In this document: in pieces, positions 363-38,442 of the stretch
How the letters are laid out: each line of letters begins with the position of its first letter
Position numbering within the stretch: the first letter of the stretch is position 1
Origin: a virus
Taxonomy: Duplodnaviria; Heunggongvirae; Uroviricota; Caudoviricetes
DNA length: 51,527 nt
Strand: one strand, 5' to 3'
IMG/VR virus record: IMGVR_UViG_3300031998_000026
Span: 1 to 51,527 of that record
The notes under the pieces: model-generated
Told to the model about the DNA's origin: nothing
Database searches by the model: none
What the model saw: the letters and a program-made list of their open reading frames with translations, nothing else
Made by a program: the position numbers and the translations under genes

Positions 363-414
363 TTGACCGATGCGATAGCCGTGTGCTATGGTCGAAGGCA
401 CGAACACACGTTCT
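363..414 (+). promoter_or_regulatory. sigma70-type promoter with downstream LexA/SOS-type box (head of packaging operon)
   Basis: TTGACC 363-368, 18-nt spacer, TG-c-TATGGT 384-392; CGAAC-ACAC-GTTCT at 401-414. Confidence 0.65.
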
Positions 415-486
415 CAGGCGCTGCTGCGGAGTGACGGGCGCCCGATGTCGGGGCATGTGCAGCCCCAGTTGGGAGACACCGCAGCG

Positions 487-984
487 ATGGCGCAGGAGTG
501 GGCCAAGCATTTCTACCACAGCCCGGCGTGGCTGAAGAACAGGTCGGGATACCTGCGCTCGACGCTGGACACCTCGGGCAACGTGCTCGTGGCCGTGACC
601 AAGGACGGTCGGACTTACTACGCCCGCAGGGATGACCGATCGCAGACTCCCGTGCCCGACTCCATGGTCGTGCCTCCCGGCATATGCGAGCGGTGCTTCC
701 AGATGGGGGAGTTCACGCCTGCGACGCTCGTGCACCACAAGACCCACCTTACCCCCGAGAACGTGGACGACCCTCACGTGACCCTCTCGTACGACAACTT
801 CCAGCGCCTATGCCAGGACTGCCATGCGGCGGTCCACTCCGGACAGTCGGCCCCGCGCGTCACATTCGACGAGCGGGGCTATGTCATGCCCAGTGAGACC
901 GACACCGAGCGCAGCTACAAGGAGCTGGTCATGCGGCTCACGGAGACCGTCGACGAGCAAAGGAACATCCATAGGAGACGATAG
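487..984 (+). CDS. phage HNH endonuclease (terminase-associated, gp74-like)
   Basis: FYHSPAWLKNR...CERC...VHHKTHL...DNFQRLCQDCHAAVH; ATG 487 follows GGGAG; lies upstream of terS. Confidence 0.85.
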   Translation: MAQEWAKHFYHSPAWLKNRSGYLRSTLDTSGNVLVAVTKDGRTYYARRDDRSQTPVPDSMVVPPGICERCFQMGEFTPATLVHHKTHLTPENVDDPHVTLSYDNFQRLCQDCHAAVHSGQSAPRVTFDERGYVMPSETDTERSYKELVMRLTETVDEQRNIHRRR

Positions 985-994
985 GAGACCACAC

Positions 995-1135
995 ATGGGA
1001 GAGACATGCCTCAACTGCAGGCACTTCGACCCGGACGACACGGGGCTTCCCGTGTGCGTCCTGCACCGCAGGTTCATGCACGGCGAGTGGACGTGCGGCG
1101 ACTTCGAGCGGCCTCGAGGGGGTGACGGCAAGTGA
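995..1135 (+). CDS. small Cys-rich hypothetical protein (46 aa)
   Basis: GGAG RBS, ATG 995; MGETCLNCRHF...CVLH...WTCGDFE; stop overlaps next GTG (GTGA). Confidence 0.6.
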   Translation: MGETCLNCRHFDPDDTGLPVCVLHRRFMHGEWTCGDFERPRGGDGK

Positions 1136-1245
1136 GCCTTTGCGACTGGTGCGAGCACCACGTGTACGACGAGGACGAGGACGAGGAGTACTGCGAGTAC
1201 GAGTGCGACCCCGACGACTGCGACCTCTACGAGGAGGCCGAATGA
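1132..1245 (+). CDS. very small acidic Cys-rich protein (37 aa), absent from ORF track
   Basis: GTG 1132; SLCDWCEHHVYDEDEDEEYCEYECDPDDCDLYEEAE; coupled by GTGA/ATGA overlaps on both sides. Confidence 0.55.
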   Translation: MSLCDWCEHHVYDEDEDEEYCEYECDPDDCDLYEEAE

Positions 1246-1436
1246 GCCTCTACTTCTACGCCAGGCCCACGGCGAGGATGGAGAACCGCTTCGAGGACGA
1301 GGTGGCGATAACGTGGGCGGACTCAAAGCGCGACGCCCTCGAGAGGTTCAGCGAGTACTTCGACCATGCCGACGTCAGATACGTGCACCACGTGAGGTTC
1401 GATCACTCCGAGGTGTGCGTCCTCACCGACTTCTAG
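1242..1436 (+). CDS. hypothetical protein (64 aa)
   Basis: GAGGAGG RBS, ATG 1242; MSLYFYARPTARMENRFEDEVAITWADSK... Confidence 0.65.
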   Translation: MSLYFYARPTARMENRFEDEVAITWADSKRDALERFSEYFDHADVRYVHHVRFDHSEVCVLTDF

Positions 1437-1448
1437 GGAGGGGAGAAC

Positions 1449-1832
1449 ATGCCTGCGAAGAGGATACCCAAGCCGAGGCAGGAGGACATAGACAGCGCCG
1501 TGCAGGGCCTGCTCGAGGTGATAGACATCGACTCCCTCTCGGACGTCGACAGGTTCTTCGCGCTCGACCTGCTCGGTGACTACGGGAAGTGGTGCGCCAT
1601 ATCTGAGGCGGCATGGACGTCGATATCGACGGAGGGCACGCTCTCGCGCACCACCACGGGAGGCAAGGGCAACAACCACTACAAGCTCACCAAGAGCGAG
1701 TCCATCAACGTGTTCAAGGACGCGAGGGCCGCGAAGTCAGACCTCGCGGTCAAGATCTCGAGGTTCGTGAAGCAGGGCGCGGCGGCGTCCGACGAGGGGG
1801 AGATGGATGCCTTCGACGCCTTCAACGCCTAA
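1449..1832 (+). CDS. terS: terminase small subunit (putative)
   Basis: 127 aa immediately upstream of and overlapping terL; P27-like composition (LLGDYGKW...TTTGGKGNNHYK...INVFKD). Confidence 0.7.
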   Translation: MPAKRIPKPRQEDIDSAVQGLLEVIDIDSLSDVDRFFALDLLGDYGKWCAISEAAWTSISTEGTLSRTTTGGKGNNHYKLTKSESINVFKDARAAKSDLAVKISRFVKQGAAASDEGEMDAFDAFNA

Positions 1833-4668
1833 CAGCCCTCCGTACATAGTCGACGGCAAGACTGATGCCGAGAGGTACCTCGAGGGGTGCCTCGACGGCT
1901 CCGTAGTCGCATGCAAGAAGATTAAGCGCCTTGCGGAGATAATGCTGCCACGGTTCCACGAGGAGTACCACGGCTTCCACTTCTCGGTCGAGGCCGCACT
2001 CAGGCCGGTTCGCTTCATCGAGACGATATGCCGGATCCCGTCGGCCGAGAACATGGGCATGCCGTTCATCCTCGAGCCGTACGAGCGGATGATCGTCGAG
2101 CTGGCGTTCGGCTTCGTCGACGAGGACGGGCACCGTCAGTTCAGGGAAGTGCTGGTTGAGATTAGTCGCAAGAACGGCAAGGCTCTGAGCCTTGACACCG
2201 AGATACCGACACCAAATGGTTGGCGCACAATGGGCGACCTACATGTCGGCGACGTCGTGTTCGGTCAAGACGGCAAACCGTCAAACATTGTTGCTGAATC
2301 AGAGATTTTTGACAAGCCGATGTACCTCGTCACGTTTGAGGACGGTTCACAAATAAAGGCATCTGGCGACCATGTCTGGACAGTGCAGACAAAACACAGC
2401 CGTAGTACATCAAAGAGGATGCCTGGGCCACGTGGCCACATCGGAAATGGCAAGCGTTACCGTAGCGACGGCTGGTATGAGGTTACAACACAGGAAATGT
2501 TCGACGACTCCAAGTTTGTCTGTCACAGAGCCGATGGCAAAGGTGTCGAGTATAAGTATCGTGTGCCCATGAGTCTTCCTGCCGAGTACCCAGAGAGGGA
2601 GCTGCCGATAGACCCGTATACGTTTGGATATTGGCTTGGGGACGGGACATCAAGCAAGCCAGAAGTCACGGTTGCTGACTGCGACATTCAAGACGCATAT
2701 CAAACACTCACTTCGCTTGGACACTCTTGCGACATTAAGCACTGCAAGAGCAGAACAGACAAGATAGTTATCGATACGGGAGTGAGAGGCGAAAACGGAA
2801 GCAATTCGTTTATAAACGCACTTAGGGAGTTGGGGGTGTTCGGGAATAAGCACATACCCGACATCTACTTACAAGGCTCAACCGAACAGCGCTGGGAGCT
2901 ACTGCGCGGTCTTATGGACACTGACGGCTATTGTTCTCAGGCAGGTCAATGTGAGTTCACGCAGAAGAACGAGCTTATTGTCGACCAGCTCATCGAGCTG
3001 TGCTCAAGCCTCGGCATAAAGGCGACAAAGAGGAGTAAGCAGGCTCAGTGCAATGGCAAACCCTGTGGCACTGTATACCAGGCGCAGTTCTGGACGGACA
3101 AAGAGCATAGTTGCTTCCACCTGAAGCGCAAGCATGACCGGTTAAAAGATAAGCTTGCACCTAGAATGTCACGCAAGACCATCGTGTCGATAGAGCCCAT
3201 CCCAAACGAGCCAAGCAAGTGCATAGCAATTGACAATCAATCACACCTGTATCTTGCAGGCAGACACTACACTGCAACCCACAACACCTCACTGCTCGCC
3301 GCCCTCAACCTCTATATGCTCACCAGCGACAAGGAGCCGGCAGCCGAATGCTACAACGGTGCCACCAACACCCAGCAGGCGAGGCTTTGTTGGGGTGCCA
3401 CGAACGATATGATCAAGATGTCGCCGCTCCTCAGGAAGCGCATACGCAGGGGCATGGTGCAGAAGCGCGGAATCACCGGACTGAACTACGACGCAAACGG
3501 CTCGTACCTATGCACGATCAGCTCTCGCAGCGACAGCCTCGACGGACTCAACATGCACTTCGGCGTGCTCGACGAGCTTGCAGCCTGTCGTGACCAGGGC
3601 GCCACGTACCGCCTTCTCACAGGGGCAATGAGCTCTCGTCGGCAGCCCATGCTGTTCGTCATATCGACCCAGGGGAAGGTCAGGAACAACATCTTCGACA
3701 ACCGCCTGGAGGTGTGCAACCGATGGCTCAACGGCGAGTCGAGGTCTGACCGGATACTGCCAATCCTCTTCGAGCAGGACGATCGTTCCGAGGTGTTCGC
3801 CGGCCTCGAGGAGGAGAACAGGTGGCTGTGGAAGAAGTCGAACCCCGGCCTCGGCACGGTCAAGAAGGAGTCGAGCATGGTCGAGCTCGTGCAGCAGGCA
3901 TTCGAGAACAGGGCCGACCTGCCCGAGGTGCTCATGAAGCAGTTCAACATACCCGCGCTGGAATACTCTAGCTTCCTCTCGTACGAGGAGTGCGTCAACG
4001 ACGAGCCGACCCCATTCGACCCGTCTGTCGACCGATACTGCGTCATCGGCTTCGACCTTGCGTCGTCAGGCGACCTCAACGCGGCGTGCGCGCTGTACAA
4101 GCGCCCGGGAGACGACAGGTACTACGAGCGGAGCTGCTGCTGGATAGCCGACGAGCAGGTGAACATCAACATCAAGGGGTTCAAGGAGCGTGACGCCGTG
4201 CCGTACAGGCAGTGGGCGTCCGACGGGTGGCTGCACATAGTCGAGGGCGACAAGGTGAACCAGATGGTCATCGTCGAATGGATACGGTCGCTAGTTGACG
4301 AGGGCCTCTACCCGATGGCCGTCGCGTACGACGCGTGGCACGTGGACGACTGGACCGAGAGGGAGCTCAAGCGCCTCGTCGGCGAGTCCAGGGTACACAG
4401 CGTCCCGCAATACGCGAAGGTGCTGTCGCCGCTCATGAAGGAGCACCAGCTCGACCTCCGCGCGCACAGGATAATCAACAGCTCGCCGATAACGGCGTGG
4501 GCGAGGATGAACGTTGAGGTCACCGTCGACAACAACGACAACGTCTTCCCGAGGAAGAAGAACCTGGACCCCCACAAGAAGATAGACCCGTACATGGCCG
4601 AGCTGTTCGCGTTCAAGGCGTTCCGACTGCACGAGGAGGAGTACGCCGGCATGATTGGCGACTCCTAG
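1807..4668 (+). CDS. terL: terminase large subunit, intein-containing precursor
   Basis: LEPYERMIVELAFG, RQFREVLVEISRKNGK/T Walker A, FGVLDEL Walker B, VISTQG, IGFDLASSGD nuclease, AYDAW, KIDPYMA. Confidence 0.95.
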   Translation: MPSTPSTPNSPPYIVDGKTDAERYLEGCLDGSVVACKKIKRLAEIMLPRFHEEYHGFHFSVEAALRPVRFIETICRIPSAENMGMPFILEPYERMIVELAFGFVDEDGHRQFREVLVEISRKNGKALSLDTEIPTPNGWRTMGDLHVGDVVFGQDGKPSNIVAESEIFDKPMYLVTFEDGSQIKASGDHVWTVQTKHSRSTSKRMPGPRGHIGNGKRYRSDGWYEVTTQEMFDDSKFVCHRADGKGVEYKYRVPMSLPAEYPERELPIDPYTFGYWLGDGTSSKPEVTVADCDIQDAYQTLTSLGHSCDIKHCKSRTDKIVIDTGVRGENGSNSFINALRELGVFGNKHIPDIYLQGSTEQRWELLRGLMDTDGYCSQAGQCEFTQKNELIVDQLIELCSSLGIKATKRSKQAQCNGKPCGTVYQAQFWTDKEHSCFHLKRKHDRLKDKLAPRMSRKTIVSIEPIPNEPSKCIAIDNQSHLYLAGRHYTATHNTSLLAALNLYMLTSDKEPAAECYNGATNTQQARLCWGATNDMIKMSPLLRKRIRRGMVQKRGITGLNYDANGSYLCTISSRSDSLDGLNMHFGVLDELAACRDQGATYRLLTGAMSSRRQPMLFVISTQGKVRNNIFDNRLEVCNRWLNGESRSDRILPILFEQDDRSEVFAGLEEENRWLWKKSNPGLGTVKKESSMVELVQQAFENRADLPEVLMKQFNIPALEYSSFLSYEECVNDEPTPFDPSVDRYCVIGFDLASSGDLNAACALYKRPGDDRYYERSCCWIADEQVNINIKGFKERDAVPYRQWASDGWLHIVEGDKVNQMVIVEWIRSLVDEGLYPMAVAYDAWHVDDWTERELKRLVGESRVHSVPQYAKVLSPLMKEHQLDLRAHRIINSSPITAWARMNVEVTVDNNDNVFPRKKNLDPHKKIDPYMAELFAFKAFRLHEEEYAGMIGDS
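2182..3285 (+). mobile_element. intein (368 aa) with LAGLIDADG homing endonuclease; Ala1, WCT signature = class 3
   Basis: Inserted between GK and T of Walker A; starts ALSLDTEIPTPNGW, block B ASGDHVW, LAGLIDADG motifs GYWLGDG and RGLMDTDG, block F SKCIAID, ends YTATHN|T; visibly lower GC than the exteins. Confidence 0.92.
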
Positions 4669-4681
4669 CAAGAGGGAGCGG

Positions 4682-5890
4682 TCACGAGCGTTGCCTGTCC
4701 AGGACGCACTCGCAGAAGTCGCGCACCGTCCACATGCCACGCTGCTGCGACGGCAGGTACGTCGCATGTATCGGAGCAGGTACGACGAGCTGCAGGTCGC
4801 GCGCGGCCATCTCCTTGGTCTGGTCGACCGATATGGCGGGCTCCAAGGTCACGAGATGCTTCGTGCGAACCCTGTCTCCCTCCTGCAGCACCTGCCTCCA
4901 CCTGTCCTTCGCCGTTGTCTTGGCACCGAGCAGCGTGAGTCTGGCGGCGGGGAAGAGGGAGTCGTGGTACGCGTCCTCGGACGGGAACAGGAAGTCGGGC
5001 TTCTCCTTGCCCTCCGTGCGGCCCTGTGCGGTGTAGTCTATGCCGAACGCGTCGAACACGGCCTCGAGGTGGTACTCCAGAGCATGGCCGGCGGACGACC
5101 TCCTGCGCTGGAACAGCGACATGGCGACCGAGAGTATGGCGTCGTAGTCGGGGTCGGAGACGTTCCTCACAAGCGGCCCGAGCCTTGACTCCATCTCGTG
5201 CCGCTCGTACTCCATGAACAGCGTGGTCTGCGTGTTGTAGAAGTCCACGAGCGCGCCGTCTGGGTCATCGAGCGGGTCCATGCCGGAGACGCACCTTGCG
5301 AACTCGGAGAACACGCGGCCGTGTGGCAGCCTGTCAGGCCACCTGTCCAGCATCTCGGTCACGTACTCGCCGAGCTCCCATGGCGCCTCCGCCTCTATGC
5401 CAAGCATGGCAAGGATCTCCGCCCCGAAGGCGTCGACCCTCCTTCCCATGTCGCGCGAAGGCTTGTAGCTGGCTGAGTCGTCATCTACCCCGAACAGATA
5501 CCTGACCTCGGACTCCCTGTCCGTACCGCTCTCGGCGAACACGAACGCGAGCTCGCCCTCGCTTGTGACGGCCACTATGGCGAGGTCGCCGACGCCGGCC
5601 ATCGAAACGGGAGGGCATTCGGGGTAGTAGAGCCTGTATTCGGGTCCCCTGTTCGGATTCTTCCTTCGGGCGTCATACCATGTCGTCAGCGCATAGGCAG
5701 TCTCCATGGCTCCGTCGCCTACGTAAAGATACGTCGCCCATACGCGCCTGTCGTCGTCACCAAGGTACTTGCGAAGCCTGCCAAAGCCGCCGAGCTCGTG
5801 CCCGTGGCTCACCATCCTGTCGATGTCGGTGCCGCCAAGCGACTTGGCGAGCACTACGTCGAAGTAGTCCCTGAGTGATCCGTAGTCCAC
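4682..5890 (-). CDS. type II restriction endonuclease, EcoRII-like C-terminal catalytic domain
   Basis: [13 protein letters not shown]...[10 protein letters not shown]...[34 protein letters not shown]; GTG 5890 with GGGAGG RBS; overlaps MTase 3' end. Confidence 0.85.
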
Positions 5891-6849
5891 AGTGCCTCCC
5901 TGACGAGGCGTGCCACGGCGGCGACCGCAGGCACGCACACGGAGTTACCGAACTGTCGGTACGCCTGCGTGTCCGAGACCGGTATCTCGAACGAGTCGGG
6001 GAAGCCCTGCAATCTGGCGCACTCCCTCGGCGTGAGCCTCCTCGGGTTCTTCCCGTCCTGGAGCACGAGGCATTCCGAGCCGTCCTTATGGTAGCGCGCC
6101 GATATGGTGCGGGTGGTGTCTCCTGGGCCAACGGTGCCATATCCGAAGCCGTTGCCCTTGGCGCGGTGCTTAGCCGCGTATGCCTGCAGGTACTCCCACA
6201 GCTTGTCGGACAGGGTGTACTTGTCGGGCACGTCCGTCTCCATGACGTCCGCGAACACGCCGCCGCTCTCTGGTATTACGAGGTCGTCCCACGAGAACGG
6301 CAGGTCCTCCCTGAATCCGACTATGTATATGCGCTCCCTGTGCTGCGGCGTCCAGTGCTTGCCGTCTATGACCTTCCAGTGTACGTGGTACCCGAGGTCC
6401 TCGGTGAGCACGCGCATGATGACCCTGAACGTGTTGCCACTGTCGTGGCTCGTCAGGTTCTTTACGTTCTCGAGGAGGAACGCCTTCGGCCTCTTTGCGT
6501 CGATGATGCGCGCGACCTCGAAGAACAGCGTTCCCTGCGTCTCGTCCTCGAAGCCGGTGGGCCTCCCGAGGCTGCGCTTCTTGGACACGCCGGATATCGA
6601 GAAGGGCTGGCAGGGAAAACCAGCCAGCAGAATGTCATGGTCTGGTATCTCGTCTGACGGCACCTCGGTGATGTCGCCGGCTATCTCGAACCCGTCATGG
6701 AAGTTGGCCTCGTACGTCTGCCTCGAGAACTTGTTCCACTCGGACGCCCACACCGTATCCATGTCCTCGCCGAACGCCTGCTCGAATCCGAGCCTTATCC
6801 CGCCGATGCCCGCGAACAGGTCTATGGACTTGACCTTGCCTCCAGCCAT
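5854..6849 (-). CDS. dcm: DNA (cytosine-5) methyltransferase, Dcm/M.EcoRII family (CCWGG predicted)
   Basis: [81 protein letters not shown]; ATG 6849 with AGAGG RBS. Confidence 0.95.
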
Positions 6850-6981
6850 GCGATAACCTCTGTCCTGCGGGGATGCGTCCCCCGCGCAACGGCCTCCCGG
6901 CGTGGACCAGACGTCGGGAGGCTTTCCGTATGTCGAGCCTCCATCATAGACCAACAGTCGGACAGAAACTCCGACATCGCC

Positions 6982-7012
6982 TATAATCTAGCAAGATACG
7001 AACGGAGGTTCG
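6982..7012 (+). promoter_or_regulatory. -10 element plus perfect LexA-type palindrome overlapping the RBS
   Basis: TATAAT 6982-6987; CGAAC-GGAG-GTTCG 6999-7012, which contains the SD GGAGG of the next gene. Confidence 0.55.
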
Positions 7013-7013
7013 G

Positions 7014-7718
7014 GTGGCGATATACATTACCGGCGACATACACGGCGACATGAGCATACGCAAGCTGGGGCGGAGCAGCTTCGAGGAGGGACGCAGTCTC
7101 ACCCGCGACGACTACGTGATCATACTCGGCGACTTCGGCCTCGTCTGGGATGGACGTGAGTCCGACGAGTGGTGGCTCGACTGGCTCGAGGCATGCCCGT
7201 GGACGACCCTCTTCATAGACGGCAACCACGAGAACCACCCGCTGCTCGCCACGTACCCCGCACGCGGATACATGGGCGGCATGGTTCACGAGGTGAGGCC
7301 GCATGTTCTGCACCTGATGAGGGGCTGGGTGTTCGACCTTCCAGCGGACGGCGGCACGAGGTCGTTCCTCGCGATGGGAGGTGCTGCGTCCCATGACAGG
7401 GAGTGGCGCACTGAGGGCGTGTCGTGGTGGCCCGAGGAGGTTCCCGACGAGGAGGAGCGGTCGCTGTGCGAGCGGTCACTTTCCGAGAGGGGATGGAGGG
7501 TCGACCACGTCCTGACGCACGACGCCCCGTCCGACCTCGTGCCGAAGCTGGGGATACTGTCAGGCAGGAACTTCGCCGCAGACGACTACGAGAGGTGGCT
7601 CAACTCCGTCTCGTTCAGGCTGGACTTCGGCAGGTGGTGGTTCGGCCACTTCCACATCGACAGGGAGCTGTCGGGAGGGTTCGCGGCGCTCTACAACAAC
7701 GTCGTACGCGCGGATTAG
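7014..7718 (+). CDS. calcineurin-like metallophosphoesterase
   Basis: GDIHG, ILGDFG, IDGNHEN, THDAP, WWFGHFH motifs. Confidence 0.9.
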   Translation: MAIYITGDIHGDMSIRKLGRSSFEEGRSLTRDDYVIILGDFGLVWDGRESDEWWLDWLEACPWTTLFIDGNHENHPLLATYPARGYMGGMVHEVRPHVLHLMRGWVFDLPADGGTRSFLAMGGAASHDREWRTEGVSWWPEEVPDEEERSLCERSLSERGWRVDHVLTHDAPSDLVPKLGILSGRNFAADDYERWLNSVSFRLDFGRWWFGHFHIDRELSGGFAALYNNVVRAD

Positions 7719-7728
7719 CAGACGGGAC

Positions 7729-7758
7729 TTGCGCGACCGAACACATGTATGGTACAAT
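7729..7758 (+). promoter_or_regulatory. promoter upstream of portal with degenerate LexA-type box
   Basis: TTGCGC 7729-7734, 18 nt, TG-g-TACAAT 7750-7758; CGAAC-ACAT-GTATG 7738-7751. Confidence 0.55.
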
Positions 7759-7769
7759 TGCCGCATGGG

Positions 7770-7804
7770 ACAGCCATGCCGACAGGCAGGGCTGTTTTTC
7801 TTTT
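7770..7804 (+). terminator. intrinsic terminator
   Basis: ACAGCC-a-TGCC-gaca-GGCA-g-GGCTGT followed by TTTTCTTTT. Confidence 0.75.
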
Positions 7805-7819
7805 GCGCAAGGGAGCGAT

Positions 7820-9103
7820 TTGGGACTTCTCGAGAAGATCGTCCCCAAGTCTCTCAAGCCCTTGTTCGCGAAGCCCGAGCAGCAAGTCACGGGCGGCTAC
7901 AGGACGATAACGGAGTACACGCCGCAGTTCACGTCTTGGGACGGGACGCTCTACGAGCAGGCCCAGACCAGGGCGATAGTCGAGCGCATAGCGGTCGCGT
8001 GCTCCAAGCTGAAGCCGGAGTTCGTGACACCCGAGGGCTCGGGCGGCGCGATACCGAGGGTGCAGAGGCTCGTCTCGTCATTCCCCAACGACATGATGAC
8101 GTGGCCCGACTTCCTACGCAGGGTGGCTACCATCCTGTTCGTGGACACGGTCGCGTACGTCGTGCCGCAGTATGACGAGAGGGACGCAGGGACCATCGTG
8201 GGGCTGTGGCCGATGAAGCCGAGTCATACCGAGGTGGTCGAGTACGAGGGCGAGCCGTGGGTGAGGTTCCACCTGCTCAACGGCGAGACGATGGCGTTCC
8301 CGTTCTACGACGTGGCGATACTCACCAGGTTCCAGCTCGACTCCGACATATTCGGCGGAGGCAACCTGCCCCTCACGCCCACCCTCAGGCTCATGGACGC
8401 CCAGAGGCAGGCTGAGGAGATAGCGCTGCAGACCGGTGCGGACATACGGTTCATAGGCAAGCTCTCCGGCATGGTCCACGAGAAGGACATGGAGAAGAAG
8501 CGCCAGAGGTTCAGCGAGACGAACCTCAGCACCAGCAACACAACTGGGTTGATGGTCTACGACCAGACATTCGAGGACATTCAGCAGATAAAGTCCGAGC
8601 ACTACACCATCGACCCGGACGAGATGGCGCGCATCGACAAGGTTCTGTACGCGTACTTCGGCATAAACGAGAAGATACTCAACGCCGACTTCGACGAGAA
8701 CACCTGGAGCAGCTTCTACGAGTCCACCATTGAGCCCGTCGGCATAATGCTCGGCGAGCGGCTGTCGATGATGCTTCTCACGCCGACTCAGGTCCGCAAG
8801 GGCAACCGCATCATGTTCTCGAGCTCCTACCTCGAGTACGCGTCGACCGACTCGAAGATTAAGGTCGCGAAGTTCCTCTCCGAGATGGGGGCTGGCACGC
8901 GCAACGAGGTGCGCGACATATTCCAGCTCCCCAGGGTCAGGGGCGGGGACGTGTTCACGCTGCGCGGCGAGATATACATGGTCGACGACGAGAACAACAT
9001 TATCGCCGAGTCCGGCGGACACTCCCAGCACGACACCACATGGAGCGACGGCTGGGACGATGACCTGTCGGACCTCGACGAGCCAGACGAAGACAACGCG
9101 TAA
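7820..9103 (+). CDS. portal protein (HK97 family)
   Basis: TTG start after AAGGGAG; TVAYVVPQY...GLWPMKP, AYFGINEKIL, FYESTIEP, TRNEVRDIFQLP; track ORF start 7424 overlaps the phosphoesterase and is rejected. Confidence 0.9.
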   Translation: MGLLEKIVPKSLKPLFAKPEQQVTGGYRTITEYTPQFTSWDGTLYEQAQTRAIVERIAVACSKLKPEFVTPEGSGGAIPRVQRLVSSFPNDMMTWPDFLRRVATILFVDTVAYVVPQYDERDAGTIVGLWPMKPSHTEVVEYEGEPWVRFHLLNGETMAFPFYDVAILTRFQLDSDIFGGGNLPLTPTLRLMDAQRQAEEIALQTGADIRFIGKLSGMVHEKDMEKKRQRFSETNLSTSNTTGLMVYDQTFEDIQQIKSEHYTIDPDEMARIDKVLYAYFGINEKILNADFDENTWSSFYESTIEPVGIMLGERLSMMLLTPTQVRKGNRIMFSSSYLEYASTDSKIKVAKFLSEMGAGTRNEVRDIFQLPRVRGGDVFTLRGEIYMVDDENNIIAESGGHSQHDTTWSDGWDDDLSDLDEPDEDNA

Positions 9104-9105
9104 GC

Positions 9106-9129
9106 AAAGCCCCGAGAGGGGCTTTTTTG
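9106..9129 (+). terminator. intrinsic terminator after portal
   Basis: AAAGCCCC-gaga-GGGGCTTT-TTT. Confidence 0.8.
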
Positions 9130-9151
9130 TTAGACGAGCAAGGAGGCAGTG

Positions 9152-11927: not shown

Positions 11928-11930
11928 CCG

Positions 11931-26252: not shown

Positions 26253-26259
26253 GCAGGGC

Positions 26260-29849: not shown

Positions 29850-29890
29850 TTGCCATGCATATATGTTCTTGACAGACGGAGGGAAGCAAC

Positions 29891-30910: not shown

Positions 30911-30918
30911 GGCATGAC

Positions 30919-31821
30919 ATGCGCACATACGAGCTTCTGGTTGCGGACAGGACGGTGAAGCCGAACTCCAAGAGCATGTCGCTGGTGCGCACCTCGGTCG
31001 GGATGGACCAGGTGCGCATCCTCTTCGACGACGCGGAGTGGATGGACTTCCCCGTGACGATAACGTTCGCCTCGAAGGACGACATGGTAACGCAGGCGCT
31101 GGTGCTGGCAGCCATAGACGGCTCCGAGTACGTGGCCGAGGCATACTCGACCGTGCCGTGGGAGGTAATAGACGAGACGGGCAAGGTGCGGGTGACCATA
31201 CAGGGAACCGACTCGCAGGGCAGACACATCATCACCGCCAAGGGCTCTCCGCTCACCGTCGTGGAGGCAGGCGACGTCGACGCGGGAGACACGCCGCAGG
31301 ACGCGCCTACCGTCGACGAGTGGAGGCAGGCGTACTCAGACGCCATGGCGGCAGTGGGGCAGGCGTCCTCTCTGGTGAGCACGCTGCAGTCGAGGCTGGA
31401 CGAGATGGTCGAGGCTGCGGGGTCGGCGCTCGACGAGAGGATCGAGGAGCTGCACGTACCGGCGACGGCTGAGACCCTCGGCGAGGTCATCGTCGGAGAC
31501 GGCCTCGGCGTCGCGGAGTCGGGCGAGATATACGTGACCGAGGTCACCGGCATAACGCCGTCCGAGCAGTCGCAGATAAGGAACCTCGCCCGCCTCGCCA
31601 CGTACTGCTTCGACACGAGCTTCGACGAGCAGGGGGCGGTGGAGGACACCGCGAAGGTCAAGGCGTCGGCAATCCCGATAGCGACGGCGTCGACGCCGGG
31701 GTCGGTGATGCCTGACGGCACGACCATAGCCGTCGGTTCGGACGGCATGATAAGGGTGAACCTCTCGGACGCGCTCATATCGCAGGTCGCGGACGCGGTG
31801 GCCGAGAGGCTCTCCGGATAG
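30919..31821 (+). CDS. BppU-like protein, paralog 2
   Basis: MRTYELLVADR...LVRTSVGMDQV...FDDAEWMDFP...IITAKGSPLTVVEAG; clearly homologous to 27943. Confidence 0.7.
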   Translation: MRTYELLVADRTVKPNSKSMSLVRTSVGMDQVRILFDDAEWMDFPVTITFASKDDMVTQALVLAAIDGSEYVAEAYSTVPWEVIDETGKVRVTIQGTDSQGRHIITAKGSPLTVVEAGDVDAGDTPQDAPTVDEWRQAYSDAMAAVGQASSLVSTLQSRLDEMVEAAGSALDERIEELHVPATAETLGEVIVGDGLGVAESGEIYVTEVTGITPSEQSQIRNLARLATYCFDTSFDEQGAVEDTAKVKASAIPIATASTPGSVMPDGTTIAVGSDGMIRVNLSDALISQVADAVAERLSG

Positions 31822-31830
31822 GAACAAGAC

Positions 31831-33618
31831 ATGCAGACATACGAACTGCTGGTGAGCGGGCGCTCCGTGAGGGCGGCGTCCGTCGACACCACCCTCGTGC
31901 GCACGAGCATAGGGATAGACCAGGTGCACGTGCTGTTCGACGACGCCGAGTGGCTCGACTTCCCGATATCGGCCACGTTCGCCATGGGGGACGTCATGCG
32001 CACGGCCCAGCTGGTGGTGTCCCGCATAGATGGCAGCGAGTGGGCGGCGGAGGCCACCGTGACGGTGCCGTACGAGGTGGTGCGGAGGGTCGGTCGCATA
32101 CGCGTGACGTTCCAGGGCACCGACGGCGACGGCAGGCACATCATAACCGCCAAGGGGTCGCCTCTGTCCGTAGTCGAGGCAGGCGACGTCGAGGAGGGCG
32201 AGGTGCCCGGAGAGGCCCCGACGGTGGACGAGTGGCAGCACATGCGCGACGAAGCCCAGAGAGCCATCAACGAGGCCCAGTCCCTCGTCAACAACCTACA
32301 GGCCCAGCTCGACTCGATCGTGGCGGGTGCGGAAGGTTCGCTCGACGGCACAATAGAGGAAGCGACAGCCGCCATAGAGGCGCTGGTGGAGTCGGCGCGC
32401 CCCATAGCGACCGAGGAGAGCCTCGGAATGGTCAGGGTGGGCGAGGGCCTCAGCGTCACCACGGACGGCCTCCTCTCGTCGGCGGGACTCACGCAGGCTC
32501 AGCGCAGGGCGCTCGAGAACCTGATTCTCCTCGCCGGGAGGGTGACCGACGCCGACGTCACCACGACGGTGCAGGATAGCCCGAGGATAGAGCCGGGCGC
32601 CCTGCCGGTTGCGACTCCCGTTACGCTCGGCACCGTCATGCCAGACGGGACGACCATAAGAATCGGCGAAGACGGCATGATTCACGCGCACTCCGCGCAG
32701 GTGGACGTCGCGACTGTCGAGGCGGTCGGCGTGGTAAAGCCCGACGGGTCGACGATAACGATAGACGATGACGGCACCATACACGGCAGCGGTCAGGGAG
32801 GCGGCACCGACATAGGTGACCTTCCGTTCCGCGTCGGGTACGTCGGCAACAGCTCGTACATGAGCAGCGTCGCGTACGTCATCGGCGACGAGTCGGACGG
32901 CTGGTACAGGTTCCCGGATGTCTACTCGATTCCACAGAGCGCATATATGGGCTGCAGCTCGCTTGTGTCGGCAGAGTTTGCGACATGCAGGCATGTCGGC
33001 AGCCACGCGTTCGAATGGTGCACGTACCTCACGAACGTCGACCTCCCCCAATGTTACGATGTCGGGCAGAGCGCGTTCGCCTACTGCCGAAAAATCAAGT
33101 CGGCAGACTTTCCTACGTGCATGTCTGTCGGCAGCAGCGCGTTCTACAGTTGCAGCAGCCTTTCGCGCGTGAGCATGCCGCATTGTGGCACGGTAGGCGA
33201 AAGCGCTTTCGCCCACTGCCAAAGTCTCACGTCGGCCTACCTGCCTACATGCACGAACGTCAGCAATTACGCGTTTGCGTATGCGCCGCTGGTCTCTATC
33301 GATCTCCCGGAGTGCCTGAGCCTGCCATACAAAGCGTTTTTATCCTGCACACGTCTCGAGACGGTCGTCCTGTCTCGGTGCATGTCAATCGAAAGCAGCG
33401 CCTTTGCCAATTGCGTCAGGCTGACGAGGCTCGATCTCACTGGGGTGAGCGACGTTCCCTATCTTCCATACGCAACTGCGTTCGCCAACACCCCGATCTC
33501 AAGCACGACCTCATACGTCGGCGGGTACGGTTCCATATACGTGCCGTCGTCCCTGTACTCGAGATTCAGGAGCGCGTACGTATGGAAGCTGTACTCCAGC
33601 AGAATCGTGTCTGCGTAG
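31831..33618 (+). CDS. BppU-like paralog 3 fused to a C-terminal BspA-type LRR domain
   Basis: Same N-terminal domain; repeated PVAT..TLG.V.PDG.TI motifs; LRR repeats from ~32900; C-cap TPISS..GGYGSIYVP...W..YSSRIV. Confidence 0.8.
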   Translation: MQTYELLVSGRSVRAASVDTTLVRTSIGIDQVHVLFDDAEWLDFPISATFAMGDVMRTAQLVVSRIDGSEWAAEATVTVPYEVVRRVGRIRVTFQGTDGDGRHIITAKGSPLSVVEAGDVEEGEVPGEAPTVDEWQHMRDEAQRAINEAQSLVNNLQAQLDSIVAGAEGSLDGTIEEATAAIEALVESARPIATEESLGMVRVGEGLSVTTDGLLSSAGLTQAQRRALENLILLAGRVTDADVTTTVQDSPRIEPGALPVATPVTLGTVMPDGTTIRIGEDGMIHAHSAQVDVATVEAVGVVKPDGSTITIDDDGTIHGSGQGGGTDIGDLPFRVGYVGNSSYMSSVAYVIGDESDGWYRFPDVYSIPQSAYMGCSSLVSAEFATCRHVGSHAFEWCTYLTNVDLPQCYDVGQSAFAYCRKIKSADFPTCMSVGSSAFYSCSSLSRVSMPHCGTVGESAFAHCQSLTSAYLPTCTNVSNYAFAYAPLVSIDLPECLSLPYKAFLSCTRLETVVLSRCMSIESSAFANCVRLTRLDLTGVSDVPYLPYATAFANTPISSTTSYVGGYGSIYVPSSLYSRFRSAYVWKLYSSRIVSA

Positions 33619-33627
33619 GGAGGGGAC

Positions 33628-33990
33628 ATGGCGGCGATAGTCATATACCAAGATTATCCTGACGCGACGTACGACACGAAGGGTGTCGTGCGCATAGACG
33701 AGCAGAGTCTCGTCGTGTCTGACGGATTCCTCGGCACGAAAAGTGCAACTGACGAGTCTCTCGGGGTCGTGATGCCAGATAACACGACGACCACAGTCGA
33801 CGGCAACGGCGTCATAAGCGTCAAGGGCTACGAGGAGACCATAGCAGGGCTGCTCGAGAGGATCGAGGCGCTCGAAGACGCGCTCGACATGGGCATGACG
33901 TACGAGGACGGCACGCTTGTCGTCAACGCCACGCTCGAGGACGGCACGCTGGTCACCGGACGCACGTACGAGGACGGAACGCTCTCATAG
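33628..33990 (+). CDS. hypothetical fibre-associated protein
   Basis: GGAGGGG RBS; ATDESLGVVMPD motif; TYEDGTL repeats. Confidence 0.7.
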   Translation: MAAIVIYQDYPDATYDTKGVVRIDEQSLVVSDGFLGTKSATDESLGVVMPDNTTTTVDGNGVISVKGYEETIAGLLERIEALEDALDMGMTYEDGTLVVNATLEDGTLVTGRTYEDGTLS

Positions 33991-34000
33991 AGGAGGACAA

Positions 34001-34279
34001 ATGGCAGGTGAGATACAGAGGGTGCGGACCAAGGACGGCGTCGAGCACCTCATAGACTACAGGTCGCTGGCGAACAGGCCGGACGCGGACATAGCCGCGC
34101 TCAAGGCGAGCGTGGCCGCGATACTAGCCGCGCTCGAGGACGCCGGCATATCCGTCGACACGTCGTCGGCGAGCGTTGACGGGAGCAGGCTCGTGCTCTC
34201 CGGCGCGGCGTACTCCGTCTCCGGAAACACGCTGTCCGTCTCTGGGGCGGACGCGGACGGCACCAAACTTGTGTTCTAG
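34001..34279 (+). CDS. hypothetical fibre-associated protein
   Basis: AGGAGG RBS; IDYRSLANRP, short coiled coil, SVDGSRLVL/SVSGNTLSV repeats. Confidence 0.7.
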   Translation: MAGEIQRVRTKDGVEHLIDYRSLANRPDADIAALKASVAAILAALEDAGISVDTSSASVDGSRLVLSGAAYSVSGNTLSVSGADADGTKLVF

Positions 34280-34291
34280 TTTTGCTACAAT
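34264..34291 (+). promoter_or_regulatory. extended -10 promoter with LexA-type box upstream of glycosylation cassette
   Basis: CAAAC-TTGT-GTTCT 34264-34277; TG-c-TACAAT 34283-34291. Confidence 0.55.
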
Positions 34292-34313
34292 CGGCTCTGA
34301 CGAAGGGAAAGCC

Positions 34314-34559
34314 ATGGACAAGATAAGCACCGTCGAGGTAAACGGCACGGAGTACGAGGTCGTGGGACCGGGAGGGGAGTACCCCATATCGGTAGTCAAC
34401 ACCGGCGACAGCTCGGGTGACGACTACTCGAACTCCCAGGTGTACCCGTCGTTCTACTGGAGGCGGACGGGCGAGGAGGGGAGCTACGAGTACTCCCTCG
34501 TCGCCTTTGTGGGAGACGCGCCGGATCACGTGAGCTACGCAGACACGGACCCGAGCTAG
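34314..34559 (+). CDS. hypothetical protein (81 aa)
   Basis: AAGGGAAAG RBS; MDKISTVEVNGTEYEV... Confidence 0.6.
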   Translation: MDKISTVEVNGTEYEVVGPGGEYPISVVNTGDSSGDDYSNSQVYPSFYWRRTGEEGSYEYSLVAFVGDAPDHVSYADTDPS

Positions 34560-34560
34560 G

Positions 34561-35508
34561 ATGCGCCTCCAGCTGCTAGTCAACCACTACAGGGAGCCGG
34601 GCTCCGTCGTGGCGAGGTTCATGCGCTCCGTGACGATGCAGGAGTCGGTGCCGTGGGACGAGGTGGAGGTGCTGGTCGGCAGCGACGGCACGACGCTCGG
34701 CGAGTGCGAGTCGCTCCTCGTCCTGTTCGGCGTGCCAGCCAGGCACGTGGCGCTCCCGCACGCGGGGGTGTGCGCCACGCGCAACGCGCTGCTCGGAGAG
34801 GCGACCGCCGACTACGTCATGTTCTGCGACGTCGATGACGCGTTCCACAGCACGCTCGGGCTCTGCAAGCTGCTCAAGGCCATCGACGACCTCGGCACGG
34901 ACGTGATAGCGTCGCCGTACGACGTCGAGGAGAGGGACGGGGATACGTCGCGGTACCGCGTCGAGAGGCGCGACACCCTGCACGTCCACGGCAAGGCGTT
35001 CAGGCGCGCGTACCTGGAGGAGAACGGCATCCGCTTCCCCGGCGAGATGGAGTTCAGCGGCGACATGTACTTCCTGTGGCTCGCGTTCAACATCGGGGGC
35101 AGCGTCGCGTGGATGACCGAGTCGTTCTACGCGTGGCGGCACAGCGAGGGCTCGATAACGCGGGCGAACCCGTGGCACAGGGTAGAGTCCTACGGCCAGA
35201 TGCTCAGGTGCTACGAGCTGCTGCATGACGACCTCGTGCGCCGCGGCAGGGACGACCTGCGCGAGAGGCTAGTCGCGGCGACGTTCGCGATGGCGTTCTG
35301 CCACTTCCACGACCCGTCGTACGCAGGCGGGCCGGAGCGGTCGGTCGACGAGATGGTCAGGCTCATGAGGCTGTACGTCGCAAGGCACGCGGACGAGTAC
35401 CGCGCGCTCCCGTACGAGGCGAAGAGGGACGCCCTGCATGGCAGGAGGCGGAGCCTCGGGGACGTCGGGTGGATGGACGAGTGGACGGAGAAGATGTGCG
35501 GGCGCTGA
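34561..35508 (+). CDS. glycosyltransferase family 2 (GT-A), soluble
   Basis: HAGVCATRNALL..ATADYVMFCDVDD (DxD), NGIRF...GDMYF, YAWRHSEGSITR; no TM segment seen. Confidence 0.85.
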   Translation: MRLQLLVNHYREPGSVVARFMRSVTMQESVPWDEVEVLVGSDGTTLGECESLLVLFGVPARHVALPHAGVCATRNALLGEATADYVMFCDVDDAFHSTLGLCKLLKAIDDLGTDVIASPYDVEERDGDTSRYRVERRDTLHVHGKAFRRAYLEENGIRFPGEMEFSGDMYFLWLAFNIGGSVAWMTESFYAWRHSEGSITRANPWHRVESYGQMLRCYELLHDDLVRRGRDDLRERLVAATFAMAFCHFHDPSYAGGPERSVDEMVRLMRLYVARHADEYRALPYEAKRDALHGRRRSLGDVGWMDEWTEKMCGR

Positions 35509-36227
35509 TAGTGGGCTACGGGACGGTCGGGAGGAACCTATACGGGGAGCTCGCCCCTCTGCACCCCGACGTGTACGACAAGTACGAGGGCATCAGGTCG
35601 TACGGCGGCCGATACGACGTCGCGTTCGTGTGCGTCGACACGCCCCTCGTCGACGGCAGGCTCGACGTCACGGAGGTCGAGTCGGCGATCCGAGAGAACG
35701 AGGCCGACGTGTTCGTGGTCAAGTCAACCGTGCTGCCGGGAACCACAGACCGCATCAGGGAGGAGACCGGCAGGAGGGTCGTGTTCAGCCCAGAGTACTA
35801 CGGCTCGACCCAGCACAACGACCACGGACGCTTCGACTTCGACTTCACGATACTGGGCGGGCCGCGCGAGGACTGCGTGCCCGTCATACAGCTCCTGCAG
35901 GGCGTCTACGACGGCAGGCACAGGTTCAGGATCACCGACGCGAAGACCGCCGAGTTGACCAAACTGATGGAAAATAGCTGGATAGCTACGAAGGTGAGCT
36001 TCTGCAACCAGTTTGCCGAGATTGCGGATAAGTTTGACGTGTGCTATGAGGAACTCAGGGAGCTCTTTCTGCTTGATGAGCGTGTGTCTCCCGCGCATAC
36101 ATTTTTTTATCGTGATCGTCCGTATTGGCAGAGCCATTGTCTCGACAAGGATGTTCCCGCCATTGCTGAGTTTGCGGACGCCAACTTGCTGAAAGCCGTA
36201 ATCGAATACAACGAGTCTCGAAAGTAG
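35496..36227 (+). CDS. UDP-glucose/GDP-mannose dehydrogenase-like protein lacking the usual C-terminal domain
   Basis: IVGYGTVG Rossmann, CVDTP, KSTVLPGTT, FSPEY, AELTKLMENSWIATKVSFCN, SHCLDKD (GGxCxPKD equivalent); ~243 aa. Confidence 0.85.
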   Translation: MRALIVGYGTVGRNLYGELAPLHPDVYDKYEGIRSYGGRYDVAFVCVDTPLVDGRLDVTEVESAIRENEADVFVVKSTVLPGTTDRIREETGRRVVFSPEYYGSTQHNDHGRFDFDFTILGGPREDCVPVIQLLQGVYDGRHRFRITDAKTAELTKLMENSWIATKVSFCNQFAEIADKFDVCYEELRELFLLDERVSPAHTFFYRDRPYWQSHCLDKDVPAIAEFADANLLKAVIEYNESRK

Positions 36228-36229
36228 GG

Positions 36230-36248
36230 CGAACGTGTGTGCTATAGT
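36230..36248 (+). promoter_or_regulatory. extended -10 promoter with LexA-type box
   Basis: CGAAC-GTGT-GTGCT 36230-36243 overlapping TG-c-TATAGT 36240-36248. Confidence 0.5.
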
Positions 36249-36270
36249 GGCATGGCACACATGTACGCAC

Positions 36271-36395
36271 CCACCACCCAAGGTGCCGAGAAATGCGGAG
36301 GAGGATTCACTGGCGGATAGGGTAGCTCCCGAAAGGGCGGACACACCCGCCGTCCTTCCGCCACTTCCGCATGGGTGTCGACTATGGGGTGGTGG
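36271..36395 (+). ncRNA. candidate cis-regulatory structured RNA leader of the HNH gene
   Basis: Nested helices CCACCACCC/GGGTGGTGG, ATGCGGAG/TTCCGCAT, TGGCGGA/TCCGCCA enclosing GGG-tagct-CCC and GGCGG-acacac-CCGCC. Confidence 0.55.
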
Positions 36396-36403
36396 TTATC
36401 TTT

Positions 36404-37387
36404 ATGTTCACCGAAGAGGAGCTCGCGAACGAGGAGTGGCGGCCTGTCGTCGGGTATGAGGGTATTTACGAAGTAAGCAGCCTCGGTAACCTTAGAAGCG
36501 TGGAGAGAGAAATCACTACGCGTCGAGGATACAGACAGACAGTTCCCTGTAAAAAGTTAACCCACAAACATAGTAAGAATGGAATTGCTGCTGTCGACTT
36601 ATGGAAAGACGGCACCAGAAATACGATTCGCGTAGAAGATATCGTTGCTGACGCATTTCTTCAAAAGCCGAGTGGCGGCAAGCGCATATCTCATGCAAAT
36701 GGTGTAAACAGCGATGTTAGAGCCTGCAACCTCACATGGGTTGACGATGAAAATGGAGACATTCCGGATGAGGAATGGAGGCCAATAGTTGGATATGAGG
36801 GGCTATACGAAGTAAGTAATTTGGGCAGGGTAAGAAGCAATGCGCGTAGAAAATGCAGGGGTGGAATTGTTAAGCCGGTAGCATCTGGATCTGGGTATTT
36901 AGCCGTTACGCTATCAAAAGAATCGGCCACATCTCGTCGACTTGTTCATAGGTTGGTGGCTGAAGCGTTCCTTGACAATATCGAGAACCTTCCTGTAGTA
37001 AACCATAAAGATGAAGATAAGACCAACAACTGTGCGTCCAATCTCGAATGGTGCACGGTTTCATATAACAATACATATGGAACTAAAATTGCGAGAATGA
37101 TTGAAAGCCGTAATTTGAATAGCGAAGAAATACGCGAGTCAATGCAAAGGGCCGCTGCAAAACGAGATTATTCCACGGCAATAGAGAGGTTTGGACGACC
37201 AGTTCTTCAGTTTGACTTAGACGGAACATTTGTGTGCTGGTGGCCAAGTCTTGGGTCGATAAAGAGAAAGCTCGGATTTAGCGCAGCCAATATCAGATGT
37301 GCGTGTACCAGAACTGAAGGATATTCGAGCGGCGTTTTTCATGGCTATTGGTGGTGTTTTGAGGAGGACTATCCATGCGCAAGCTAG
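36404..37387 (+). mobile_element. free-standing homing endonuclease: NUMOD4 + degenerate HNH + NUMOD4 + HNH + NUMOD1-like
   Basis: Two EEWRP.VGYEG.YEVS.LG..RS motifs; VHRLVAEAFL..VNHKDEDKTNNCASNLEWCT; PVLQFDLDG; low GC. Confidence 0.9.
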
Positions 37388-38418
37388 ACATCTGTGTTCC
37401 ACATTGGCAGGAAACCCCGGAGGAGATGGAGCCGTTGCTCGACTCCATAAAGGTGCAGCGCGCAGTCGACCTCTCGCAGGTCGGCGTGGTGATAGCGTAC
37501 GACGGGCCTGACGCGTCGGAGCTGCCGCTCGACGAGTGGCGCAGCCGATACCCGTTCGCCATCGAGGACGTGCACCCCGAGAAGGGTGGCGTGTCCCACA
37601 CGCGCAACGCGGCGCTCGACGCGAGCGAGGCCGAGTTCGTCATGTTTGCCGACGCGGACGACTGCCTCATGGACAACAGGGGACTGTTCATCGTGTTCAG
37701 GGAGATGGACGCCGACCCCAACCCGCAGGAGCTCGCGGTCATGGGCGTGTCAGAGAAGGACGCCGGCAAGGGCTTCGACTTCCTCGTGTGCGACTTCGTC
37801 GAGGAGAACAAGCGCCCCGACACCGGCAAGATGGACTACCTGCCACACGTGAACAACATGACCTTCGTGCATTCCCAAGTCGCACGCAGGCAGTGGCTCG
37901 TCGACAACGGCATCCGGTTCAACGACGCGCTCACCGTGCACGAGGACAGCTACTTCGTATGTCTCTGCCGCGAGCTGGTGAAGCCGTACCGTGGCAAGTA
38001 CTGTGCCCACCCGTGGTTCCTGTGGTGCTGGCGCGACGCGAGCGTGTGCCGCCACGACCCTGACTACATACTCAAGACCTACAACAACATGCTCGACTCG
38101 AACGACGCCCTCGTAGACGAGTTCACCAGGCGCATGATGCCGGAGAAGGCGAACTCCTACTGCGTCATGATGGTGTTCGACGCCTACTACTGCATGAACA
38201 AGCCAGAGTGGATAGAGGTGAACCACAAGGACTACCGCGACAGGGTGGAGAGGCGGTTCGCCGAGTACTTCCGCAAGCACGAGTCGAAGTGGGACGCCGT
38301 CTCCCCGCAGGAGCGGGCCGTCATATCGAACGGCGTTCGCCAGCGGTCTGTCGGAGAGGGCATGCTCATGGAGGCGATCACGATAGACGACTGGCTGAAG
38401 CGCATAAAGTCGCTGTAA
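37375..38418 (+). CDS. glycosyltransferase family 2 (GT-A), soluble
   Basis: LDICVPHWQE, GGVSHTRNAALD..AEFVMFADADD, GIRFNDALTVHEDSYF, FLWCWRDASVCR. Confidence 0.85.
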   Translation: MRKLDICVPHWQETPEEMEPLLDSIKVQRAVDLSQVGVVIAYDGPDASELPLDEWRSRYPFAIEDVHPEKGGVSHTRNAALDASEAEFVMFADADDCLMDNRGLFIVFREMDADPNPQELAVMGVSEKDAGKGFDFLVCDFVEENKRPDTGKMDYLPHVNNMTFVHSQVARRQWLVDNGIRFNDALTVHEDSYFVCLCRELVKPYRGKYCAHPWFLWCWRDASVCRHDPDYILKTYNNMLDSNDALVDEFTRRMMPEKANSYCVMMVFDAYYCMNKPEWIEVNHKDYRDRVERRFAEYFRKHESKWDAVSPQERAVISNGVRQRSVGEGMLMEAITIDDWLKRIKSL

Positions 38419-38420
38419 GA

Positions 38421-38442
38421 TGAACACAAGTTCTGCTATAAT
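38421..38442 (+). promoter_or_regulatory. extended -10 promoter with LexA-type box
   Basis: TGAAC-ACAA-GTTCT 38421-38434; TG-c-TATAAT 38434-38442. Confidence 0.65.

Follow-up and report, generated by a model that had tools for sequence, protein, structure and literature searches.

Candidate LexA operators at promoters across the genome of a putative temperate siphovirus of rumen Atopobiaceae

The IMG/VR record IMGVR_UViG_3300031998_000026 is a phage genome of 116,382 bp with 61% GC content and a completeness estimate of 91%. The initial 51.5 kb of this record (51,527 nucleotides; hereafter, the window) contains six promoter regions that carry palindromic boxes resembling the SOS boxes to which the host repressor LexA binds in Gram-positive bacteria. 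Genes were called by codon bias and annotated by Pfam and PHROG searches. The plus strand of the window starts with an HNH gene and the large terminase gene. A metallophosphoesterase gene and the portal gene are followed on the same strand by head and tail genes, including a gene for a 3475-residue tape measure protein. Two family-2 glycosyltransferase genes and a UDP-glucose-dehydrogenase-like gene are also found on the plus strand. The second glycosyltransferase gene is preceded by a NUMOD4-HNH endonuclease gene and followed by large genes without an assigned function. Past the end of the window, the genome encodes an integrase and a CI-type repressor that consists of HTH_3 and Peptidase_S24 domains, with a divergent Cro-side promoter. 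On the basis of these three elements, the phage is considered temperate.

The boxes were defined by the palindrome GAAC-N4-GTTC, with GTAC, GTTT and GTGC permitted as variants of the right half-site. The six 14-mers listed in a preliminary description of this DNA (401-414, 6999-7012, 7738-7751, 34264-34277, 36230-36243 and 38421-38434) were all found at these positions, and the coordinates of the boxes, promoters and hairpins are collected in Table 1. Five of the six promoters have a TG-extended -10 element, as had been noted, and promoter 2 has a plain TATAAT. Sites 4 and 6 share the 11-mer GAACACAAGTT in opposite orientations, which the sequence confirms. Box 4 overlaps the final codons and the stop codon of the upstream gene.

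Table 1. Predicted promoters, SOS-like boxes and terminator hairpins of the window, with box scores (bits) from the host-derived matrix described in the text.
Feature	Position	Strand	Description
Promoter 1	363-392	+	-35 TTGACC (363-368), 18-nt spacer, TG-extended -10 TGCTATGGT (384-392); ahead of HNH (445-984) and terminase genes
SOS box 1	400-415		core GAACACACGTTC (402-413); 17.4 bits; about +3 to +15 of promoter 1
Promoter 2	6959-6987	+	CGGACA, 17 nt, plain TATAAT (6982-6987); ahead of metallophosphoesterase gene (7014-7718)
SOS box 2	6998-7013		core GAACGGAGGTTC (7000-7011); 11.5 bits; includes GGAGG ribosome-binding site
Promoter 3	7729-7758	+	-35 TTGCGC (7729-7734), extended -10 TGGTACAAT (7750-7758); upstream of portal gene (7820-9103)
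SOS box 3	7737-7752		core GAACACATGTAT (7739-7750); 16.4 bits; occupies -35/-10 spacer
Terminator-type hairpin and U-run	7767-7804	+	fold -22.9 kcal/mol, z -3.1; before portal ribosome-binding site
SOS box 4	34263-34278		core AAACTTGTGTTC (34265-34276); 14.2 bits; over -35 region of promoter 4
Promoter 4 extended -10	34283-34291	+	TGCTACAAT; ahead of genes for an 81-aa protein, a family-2 glycosyltransferase and the UDP-glucose-dehydrogenase-like protein
SOS box 5a	36229-36244		core GAACGTGTGTGC (36231-36242); 12.3 bits; fused to -10 as in host lexA promoters
Promoter 5 extended -10	36240-36248	+	TGCTATAGT; ahead of NUMOD4-HNH endonuclease (36371-37387) and second glycosyltransferase (37375-38418) genes
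SOS box 5b	36253-36268		core GCACACATGTAC; 11.1 bits; about +1 to +12 of promoter 5
SOS box 6	38420-38435		core GAACACAAGTTC (38422-38433); 10.4 bits; abuts -10 of promoter 6
Promoter 6 extended -10	38434-38442	+	TGCTATAAT
Terminator hairpin and U-run	38491-38521	+	11-bp stem, strong; before ribosome-binding site of 72-aa gene (38554-38772) and subsequent large genes

The boxes were scored with a matrix built from host-family DNA without any phage sequence. Unseeded palindromic expectation-maximization (EM) motif discovery in the 200-nt regions preceding lexA in 30 Atopobiaceae genomes yielded the motif aCGAACAtaTGTTCGt (14.7 bits) from ∼105 sites, three to four per lexA promoter. At a threshold of 12 bits, the same matrix marks exactly one site (12.8-21.4 bits) in front of recA, at a distance of ∼105 nt, in 29 of the 30 genomes and therefore represents the Atopobiaceae SOS box. 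In Gram-positive bacteria, the SOS box (Cheo box) has the sequence CGAACRNRYGTTYC and is found in the promoters of lexA and recA of the host. The EM motif equals this classical consensus, and the phage boxes display the same palindrome. Moreover, Atopobiaceae lexA promoters contain a fused arrangement in which GAAC-N4-GTGC or GAAC-N4-GTAC leads directly into TAnnnT, and this fusion of box and -10 element is also observed at phage site 5 and at genome position 86543. The phage sites differ from the classical ones in that they reside on phage DNA and in that several fall below the typical host strength. Host lexA-promoter sites have a median score of 17.5 bits and a 10th percentile of 11.4 bits. 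On this scale, sites 1, 3 and 4 are ordinary operators, whereas sites 2, 5 and 6 are weak.

The boxes are concentrated in intergenic DNA. The 116-kb genome, 7.7% of which was called intergenic, contains six perfect GAAC-N4-GTTC palindromes, five of them intergenic (binomial, 1.5e-5). Reversed and permuted control patterns gave 0-3 matches, with 0-1 in intergenic DNA. In a scan of the full genome with the host matrix at a cut-off of 10 bits, 15 intergenic and 7 coding sites were identified, which corresponds to a 26-fold higher intergenic density (Fisher, 2e-12); the motif is not equally frequent inside coding sequences. Among 1000 dinucleotide shuffles of the intergenic DNA, the mean was 0.8 sites and the maximum 4, so that none reached 15. 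In the intergenic DNA of the window, six sites of at least 10 bits were observed against 0.18 expected. Strong sites (15.8-21 bits) are also located beyond the window, at genome positions 94933, 101777, 102217, 110078 and 112492. No sites were detected in 15 kb of intergenic DNA of an unrelated phage with 44% GC content that served as a negative control.

The boxes are associated with promoter-like elements. Ten intergenic TGnTAnnnT elements occur genome-wide, and eight of them have a box of at least 10 bits within ∼40 nt (P about 9e-6). A generic sigma-70 scan gave counts not above those of shuffles and recovered promoters 1 and 2 alone, since a -35 element is missing from the other four. Relative to the predicted -10 elements, the boxes extend from about -33 to +18. 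They overlie the -35 region at site 4, the spacer at sites 3, 5a and 6, and the beginning of the transcribed sequence at sites 1, 2 and 5b. Every box occupies a repressor-type position, and none is found at a class II activator position (near -41 to -43).

Two further groups of sites were noted outside the window. The sequence GAACGGAGGT(T/A)C occurs three times, in box 2 and at genome positions 52175-52190 (L044:1175-1190) and 54294-54309 (L044:3294-3309). One of the two outside copies is the 12-mer of box 2, located on the integrase ribosome-binding site. The other is a one-base variant on the minus strand, fused to TGCTACAAT as a leftward -10 element that faces a 900-bp stretch without a called gene. 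The highest-scoring box of the genome (112492-112507; L047:7492-7507; 21 bits) includes the start codon of a minus-strand gene for a 148-residue protein and directly follows a terminator hairpin. No -10 element is seen nearby, and the placement of this box is unexplained.

Boxes recur at matching promoters in related phage sequences. In L003, whose portal is 96% identical, the sequence upstream of the portal -35 element has diverged, whereas the -35 element, the box 3 half-sites and the -10 frame are retained. Three central bases of box 3 are changed, so that the half-sites are kept and the spacer is altered, a pattern that would be expected of a dimer site under selection. The box 2 14-mer is identical in L003 amid diverged flanks. 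In L079, whose glycosyltransferase is 64% identical and which has no HNH insert, two boxes of ∼16.5 bits follow TACAAT directly before the glycosyltransferase gene. Downstream of this gene, a 14.2-bit box on TGGTACAAT is followed by a leader, a terminator and a ribosome-binding site, which reproduces the layout of site 6 with a different sequence. Among more distant relatives, G045 has a 17-bit box in the spacer of its HNH/terminase promoter, and G042 has a 12.6-bit box before a leaderless portal gene. A matrix scan of the whole records of the distant relatives showed modest intergenic enrichment. A megablast search of isolate phages with the first 25 kb gave no match, and a glycosyltransferase query found zero loci among viral contigs.

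The host family was assigned through a capsid relative and the attachment site. A capsid protein with 52-54% identity is encoded in a prophage of an Atopobiaceae metagenome-assembled genome (MAG) from sheep ileum, and a close capsid relative was found in just 1 of 272 Atopobiaceae genomes. The 48-nt attachment (att) core (50760-50807) adjoins the integrase gene (50932-52173, minus strand) and matches the 3' end of tRNA-Arg(tct) with 100% identity both in that MAG and in five related genomes (G001 clade). The sequencing runs that contain the phage DNA are bovine and sheep gut metagenomes, and no RNA run was listed among the matches to the 33.9-39.9 kb stretch. These features point to a temperate, tRNA-Arg-integrating siphovirus of rumen Atopobiaceae (Coriobacteriia).

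The preliminary description had recognized the motif as the Gram-positive LexA operator, and the present results support this proposal. In silico, the boxes combine the palindrome with a match to the motif that precedes the lexA and recA genes of the host family, repressor-type placement at predicted promoters, intergenic enrichment and conservation. From the sequence, we infer LexA binding, repression and SOS induction, as well as the assignment of promoters to genes. The boxes would be operators of host LexA on promoters of the housekeeping sigma factor, with extended -10 elements. Since each box overlaps the -35 region, the spacer, the -10 element or the first transcribed bases, a bound LexA dimer would exclude RNA polymerase. 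In the lysogen, LexA would silence promoters outside the reach of the CI-type repressor, namely those of packaging, phosphoesterase, portal, glycosylation, homing-endonuclease and distal virion genes and at least seven promoters outside the window. Upon DNA damage, active RecA would cause LexA and the S24-peptidase CI repressor to cleave themselves, and all of the promoters would open together. Every cell contains host LexA, and sites of this quality should be occupied by it. Direct repression of these phage promoters by host LexA is therefore assigned a probability of about 0.65, and a phage-encoded LexA-domain paralogue is considered a much less probable main reader of the boxes.

Several observations weigh against LexA repression. 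The scores of sites 2, 5 and 6 fall within the lowest tenth of host operators or barely above it, the score of site 5 is partly owed to the TG of the -10 element, and box 2 includes the Shine-Dalgarno sequence. Distant relatives are poor in boxes (three in G042 and one in G043), and perfect boxes in these relatives are not above the reversed-pattern control. Given the few boxes in the distant relatives, the dense wiring is lineage-specific. Promoters 3 and 6 may yield only short RNA unless termination is overcome, and the phage LexA-domain paralogue might bind the same DNA.

This paralogue is an 86-residue phage protein encoded outside the window, at genome positions 65677-65937. It consists solely of a LexA DNA-binding domain (Pfam LexA_DNA_bind, PF01726; 7e-10), its best Protein Data Bank (PDB) relatives are all LexA N-terminal domains, and it is 29% identical to residues 1-86 of host LexA. 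The protein, which has neither a cleavage nor a dimerization domain, could be the main reader of the boxes or of a subset of them. It would either compete with LexA in an SOS-insensitive manner or activate transcription, in analogy to gp6 of phage GIL01 at promoter P3. Consistent with such a role, it retains the helix S-x-S-T-x-x-x-H-L-K and the wing K-x-R-T. The GIL01 precedent is a truncated LexA homologue that activates P3, a promoter that also bears LexA boxes (PMC6182141), and ACAC/GTGT is found within many of the phage boxes. However, the recognition helix of the 86-residue protein is SRSTAAGHLK, compared with an invariant SPSTVHMHLK in the host; it differs at four of nine positions from the host SPSTVHMHL, and gp6, with 44% identity to its host LexA, already binds a different sequence. 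The half-site profile of the phage boxes is indistinguishable from that of the host and thus favors neither LexA nor the paralogue. The repressor-type placement described above is not that of an activator. Furthermore, no homologue of the 86-residue protein was found in the examined stretches of the box-bearing relatives G042 and G045, and the LexA-domain gene is present in none of the relatives compared for co-occurrence of gene and boxes. Reading of the boxes mainly by the paralogue is thus rather unlikely, and the LexA and paralogue readings can coexist.

It was also considered that only sites 1, 3 and 4 are functional operators in the window and that sites 2, 5 and 6 are by-products of the -10 TG or of GGAGG. 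The scores of the latter sites (10.4-12.3 bits), the Shine-Dalgarno sequence within box 2 and the right half of box 5a, which is the TG-extended -10 element, are compatible with this view. The number of sites expected by chance in the intergenic DNA of the window is, however, just 0.18. The sequence GAACGGAGGT(T/A)C of box 2 is found three times in the genome and in one case is fused to a leftward -10 element rather than to a ribosome-binding site. Its preservation in L003, the strong boxes of the L079 counterparts of sites 5 and 6, and the presence of fused weak boxes in host lexA promoters likewise make a by-product origin improbable.

Promoters 3 and 6 are each followed by a terminator hairpin. 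Transcription from promoter 3 is predicted to enter the hairpin at 7767-7804, which is nearly identical in L003, after ∼3 nt, and transcription from promoter 6 is predicted to reach the hairpin at 38491-38521 after ∼45 nt. The order of promoter, leader and terminator is retained in L003, L004 and L079. The targets that had been proposed for these two promoters, the portal gene and a fibre block, are uncertain given the hairpins, and the designation as fibre has no family match. In phage λ, the promoter PR' is followed by the terminator tR' within tens of bases, ahead of the late genes, and transcription proceeds through Q antitermination. Promoters 3 and 6 share this order ahead of late genes and differ in that their promoter element is the host SOS box and not a Q-binding element.

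Despite this PR'-like order, it is very improbable that the boxes are loading sites of a phage antiterminator of the λ Q type or operators of a CI-type phage repressor, because the motif is the host SOS box, also stands at promoters without terminators and varies in position relative to the -10 element (from -25 to +20), the 116-kb record yielded no gene of the Q family (PF03589), the one antiterminator family that was searched, and the matrix scan found no box in the CI/Cro intergenic region. The suggestion in the preliminary description that a phage repressor might recognize the same motif is accordingly weakened for the CI-type repressor, whose own switch region has no box, and gains a new candidate in the 86-residue LexA-domain protein.

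The start of the portal gene differs among relatives. In the distant relatives L006-L009, the portal gene is leaderless, with an ATGGGA start 6 nt past the -10 element. In the window (7765-7819), L003 and L004, a leader of ∼55 nt with the terminator hairpin is located between a relic ATGGGA and a new ribosome-binding site with a TTG start. CATGGGA likewise stands at the beginning of the transcripts from promoter 6 and from its L079 counterpart.

The HNH cassette downstream of promoter 5 (36245-37401) is a presence/absence polymorphism. It is absent from two metagenomic variants, a 45-kb contig (run X4) and a 4.7-kb contig (run X7), in which 70 different nucleotides connect position 36244 with position 37402, and the HNH-less junction lies directly after SOS box 5a. 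Given these two variants, promoter 5 was probably the glycosyltransferase promoter prior to insertion. An Rfam int-alpA RNA (RF02996; 38.2 bits, above the gathering score) was detected on the plus strand at 36310-36377, between promoter 5 and the start of the NUMOD4-HNH gene.

Other genes of the window also exhibit unusual organization. The large terminase (1807-4668, plus strand; 953 residues) contains LAGLIDADG_3 and Hom_end domains (residues ∼350-425) that precede the ATPase and nuclease domains, an arrangement suggestive of an intein or an inserted homing endonuclease. Between the terminase and phosphoesterase genes, an EcoRII-C restriction endonuclease and a C-5 cytosine methylase (Dcm) are encoded on the minus strand (4682-6849) and form a restriction-modification island within the packaging region. 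The UDP-glucose/GDP-mannose dehydrogenase-like gene (35496-36227, plus strand; 243 residues) encodes a partial N-terminal domain and a central domain. The C-terminal domain was not found at this locus, and the gene is possibly truncated.

The closest known system is GIL01, a tectivirus of Bacillus thuringiensis with LexA boxes at promoters P1 and P3, the co-repressor gp7 and the truncated LexA homologue gp6 (PMC4551915, PMC6182141). At P3, the late promoter, LexA acts with gp7 as a repressor through tandem boxes, and activation by gp6 proceeds through a different palindrome, CACAC/GTGTG, at -43.5 (PMC6182141). The two phages are alike in that host LexA boxes are found on phage promoters, including a late or virion promoter (here, the predicted HNH/terminase and portal promoters), and in that each encodes a protein consisting of a LexA DNA-binding domain only. 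GIL01 is, however, a 15-kb linear plasmid prophage with three promoters, whereas the phage described here is a 116-kb integrating siphovirus with ∼13-15 boxed promoters. GIL01 has no dedicated repressor, whereas the present genome encodes the CI-type repressor beside the integrase, so this feature is not shared. No counterpart of gp7 (∼50 residues) was identified, and no search aimed at one was made. The gp6 protein is 44% identical to host LexA, compared with 29% for the paralogue described here, and the host in the present case is an actinomycete (Coriobacteriia).

Operon I of SaPIbov1 is another LexA-controlled packaging and capsid-morphogenesis operon (Ubeda et al. 2007, as cited in PMC3152322). 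It resembles the present case in the direct control of such an operon of a mobile element by LexA and differs in being a single operon of a Staphylococcus phage satellite, not many promoters across a phage genome. LexA co-option is also listed for CTX-phi, coliphage 186 and SPC32H (PMC9437464). Sites for host regulators at many promoters are described for phi29 (Spo0A) and for phages of Alphaproteobacteria (CtrA) (PMC9437464). As here, one host transcription factor at many phage promoters couples the phage program to the host state. Those phages use other factors and signals, are virulent or pseudo-temperate and defer lysis, whereas the signal proposed here is DNA damage acting on a temperate phage. 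Wiring of virion genes to LexA, which had been called unusual, is less so in light of GIL01 P3 and SaPI operon I, and LexA co-option by phages and satellites is established. The new aspects would be how many promoters are gated within a single large siphovirus that also encodes a cleavable repressor, the assignment to a Coriobacteriia host and the presence of a LexA-domain paralogue in the same genome.

A genome-wide program with two LexA-type proteins is a possible, still tentative extension of LexA repression. In this scheme, LexA would gate nearly all promoters of the phage that are read by host polymerase outside the CI/Cro switch, ∼13-15 in number, including those of packaging, portal, glycosylation, homing-endonuclease, RNA-repair and tRNA modules. 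Such a program would go far beyond GIL01 with its two LexA-controlled promoters. The cleavage-proof paralogue would act on the same boxes to time or override the gate, and the proximal terminators of two promoters would provide a second checkpoint.

If LexA binds these sites, the prophage would have two locks that open with one key, because activated RecA would lead to cleavage of both the CI-type repressor and LexA. Such binding would also explain the silence of the many autonomous internal promoters in a large prophage, including those of selfish inserts such as the homing endonuclease. The co-option of LexA would extend to phages of rumen Coriobacteriia, and the phage would provide a second natural example in which host LexA is paired with a phage-encoded LexA-domain paralogue. 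Such an example could reveal how general the logic of GIL01 is. DNA-damaging feed additives or antibiotics would then be predicted to induce lysis together with the glycosylation and accessory cassettes of such prophages.

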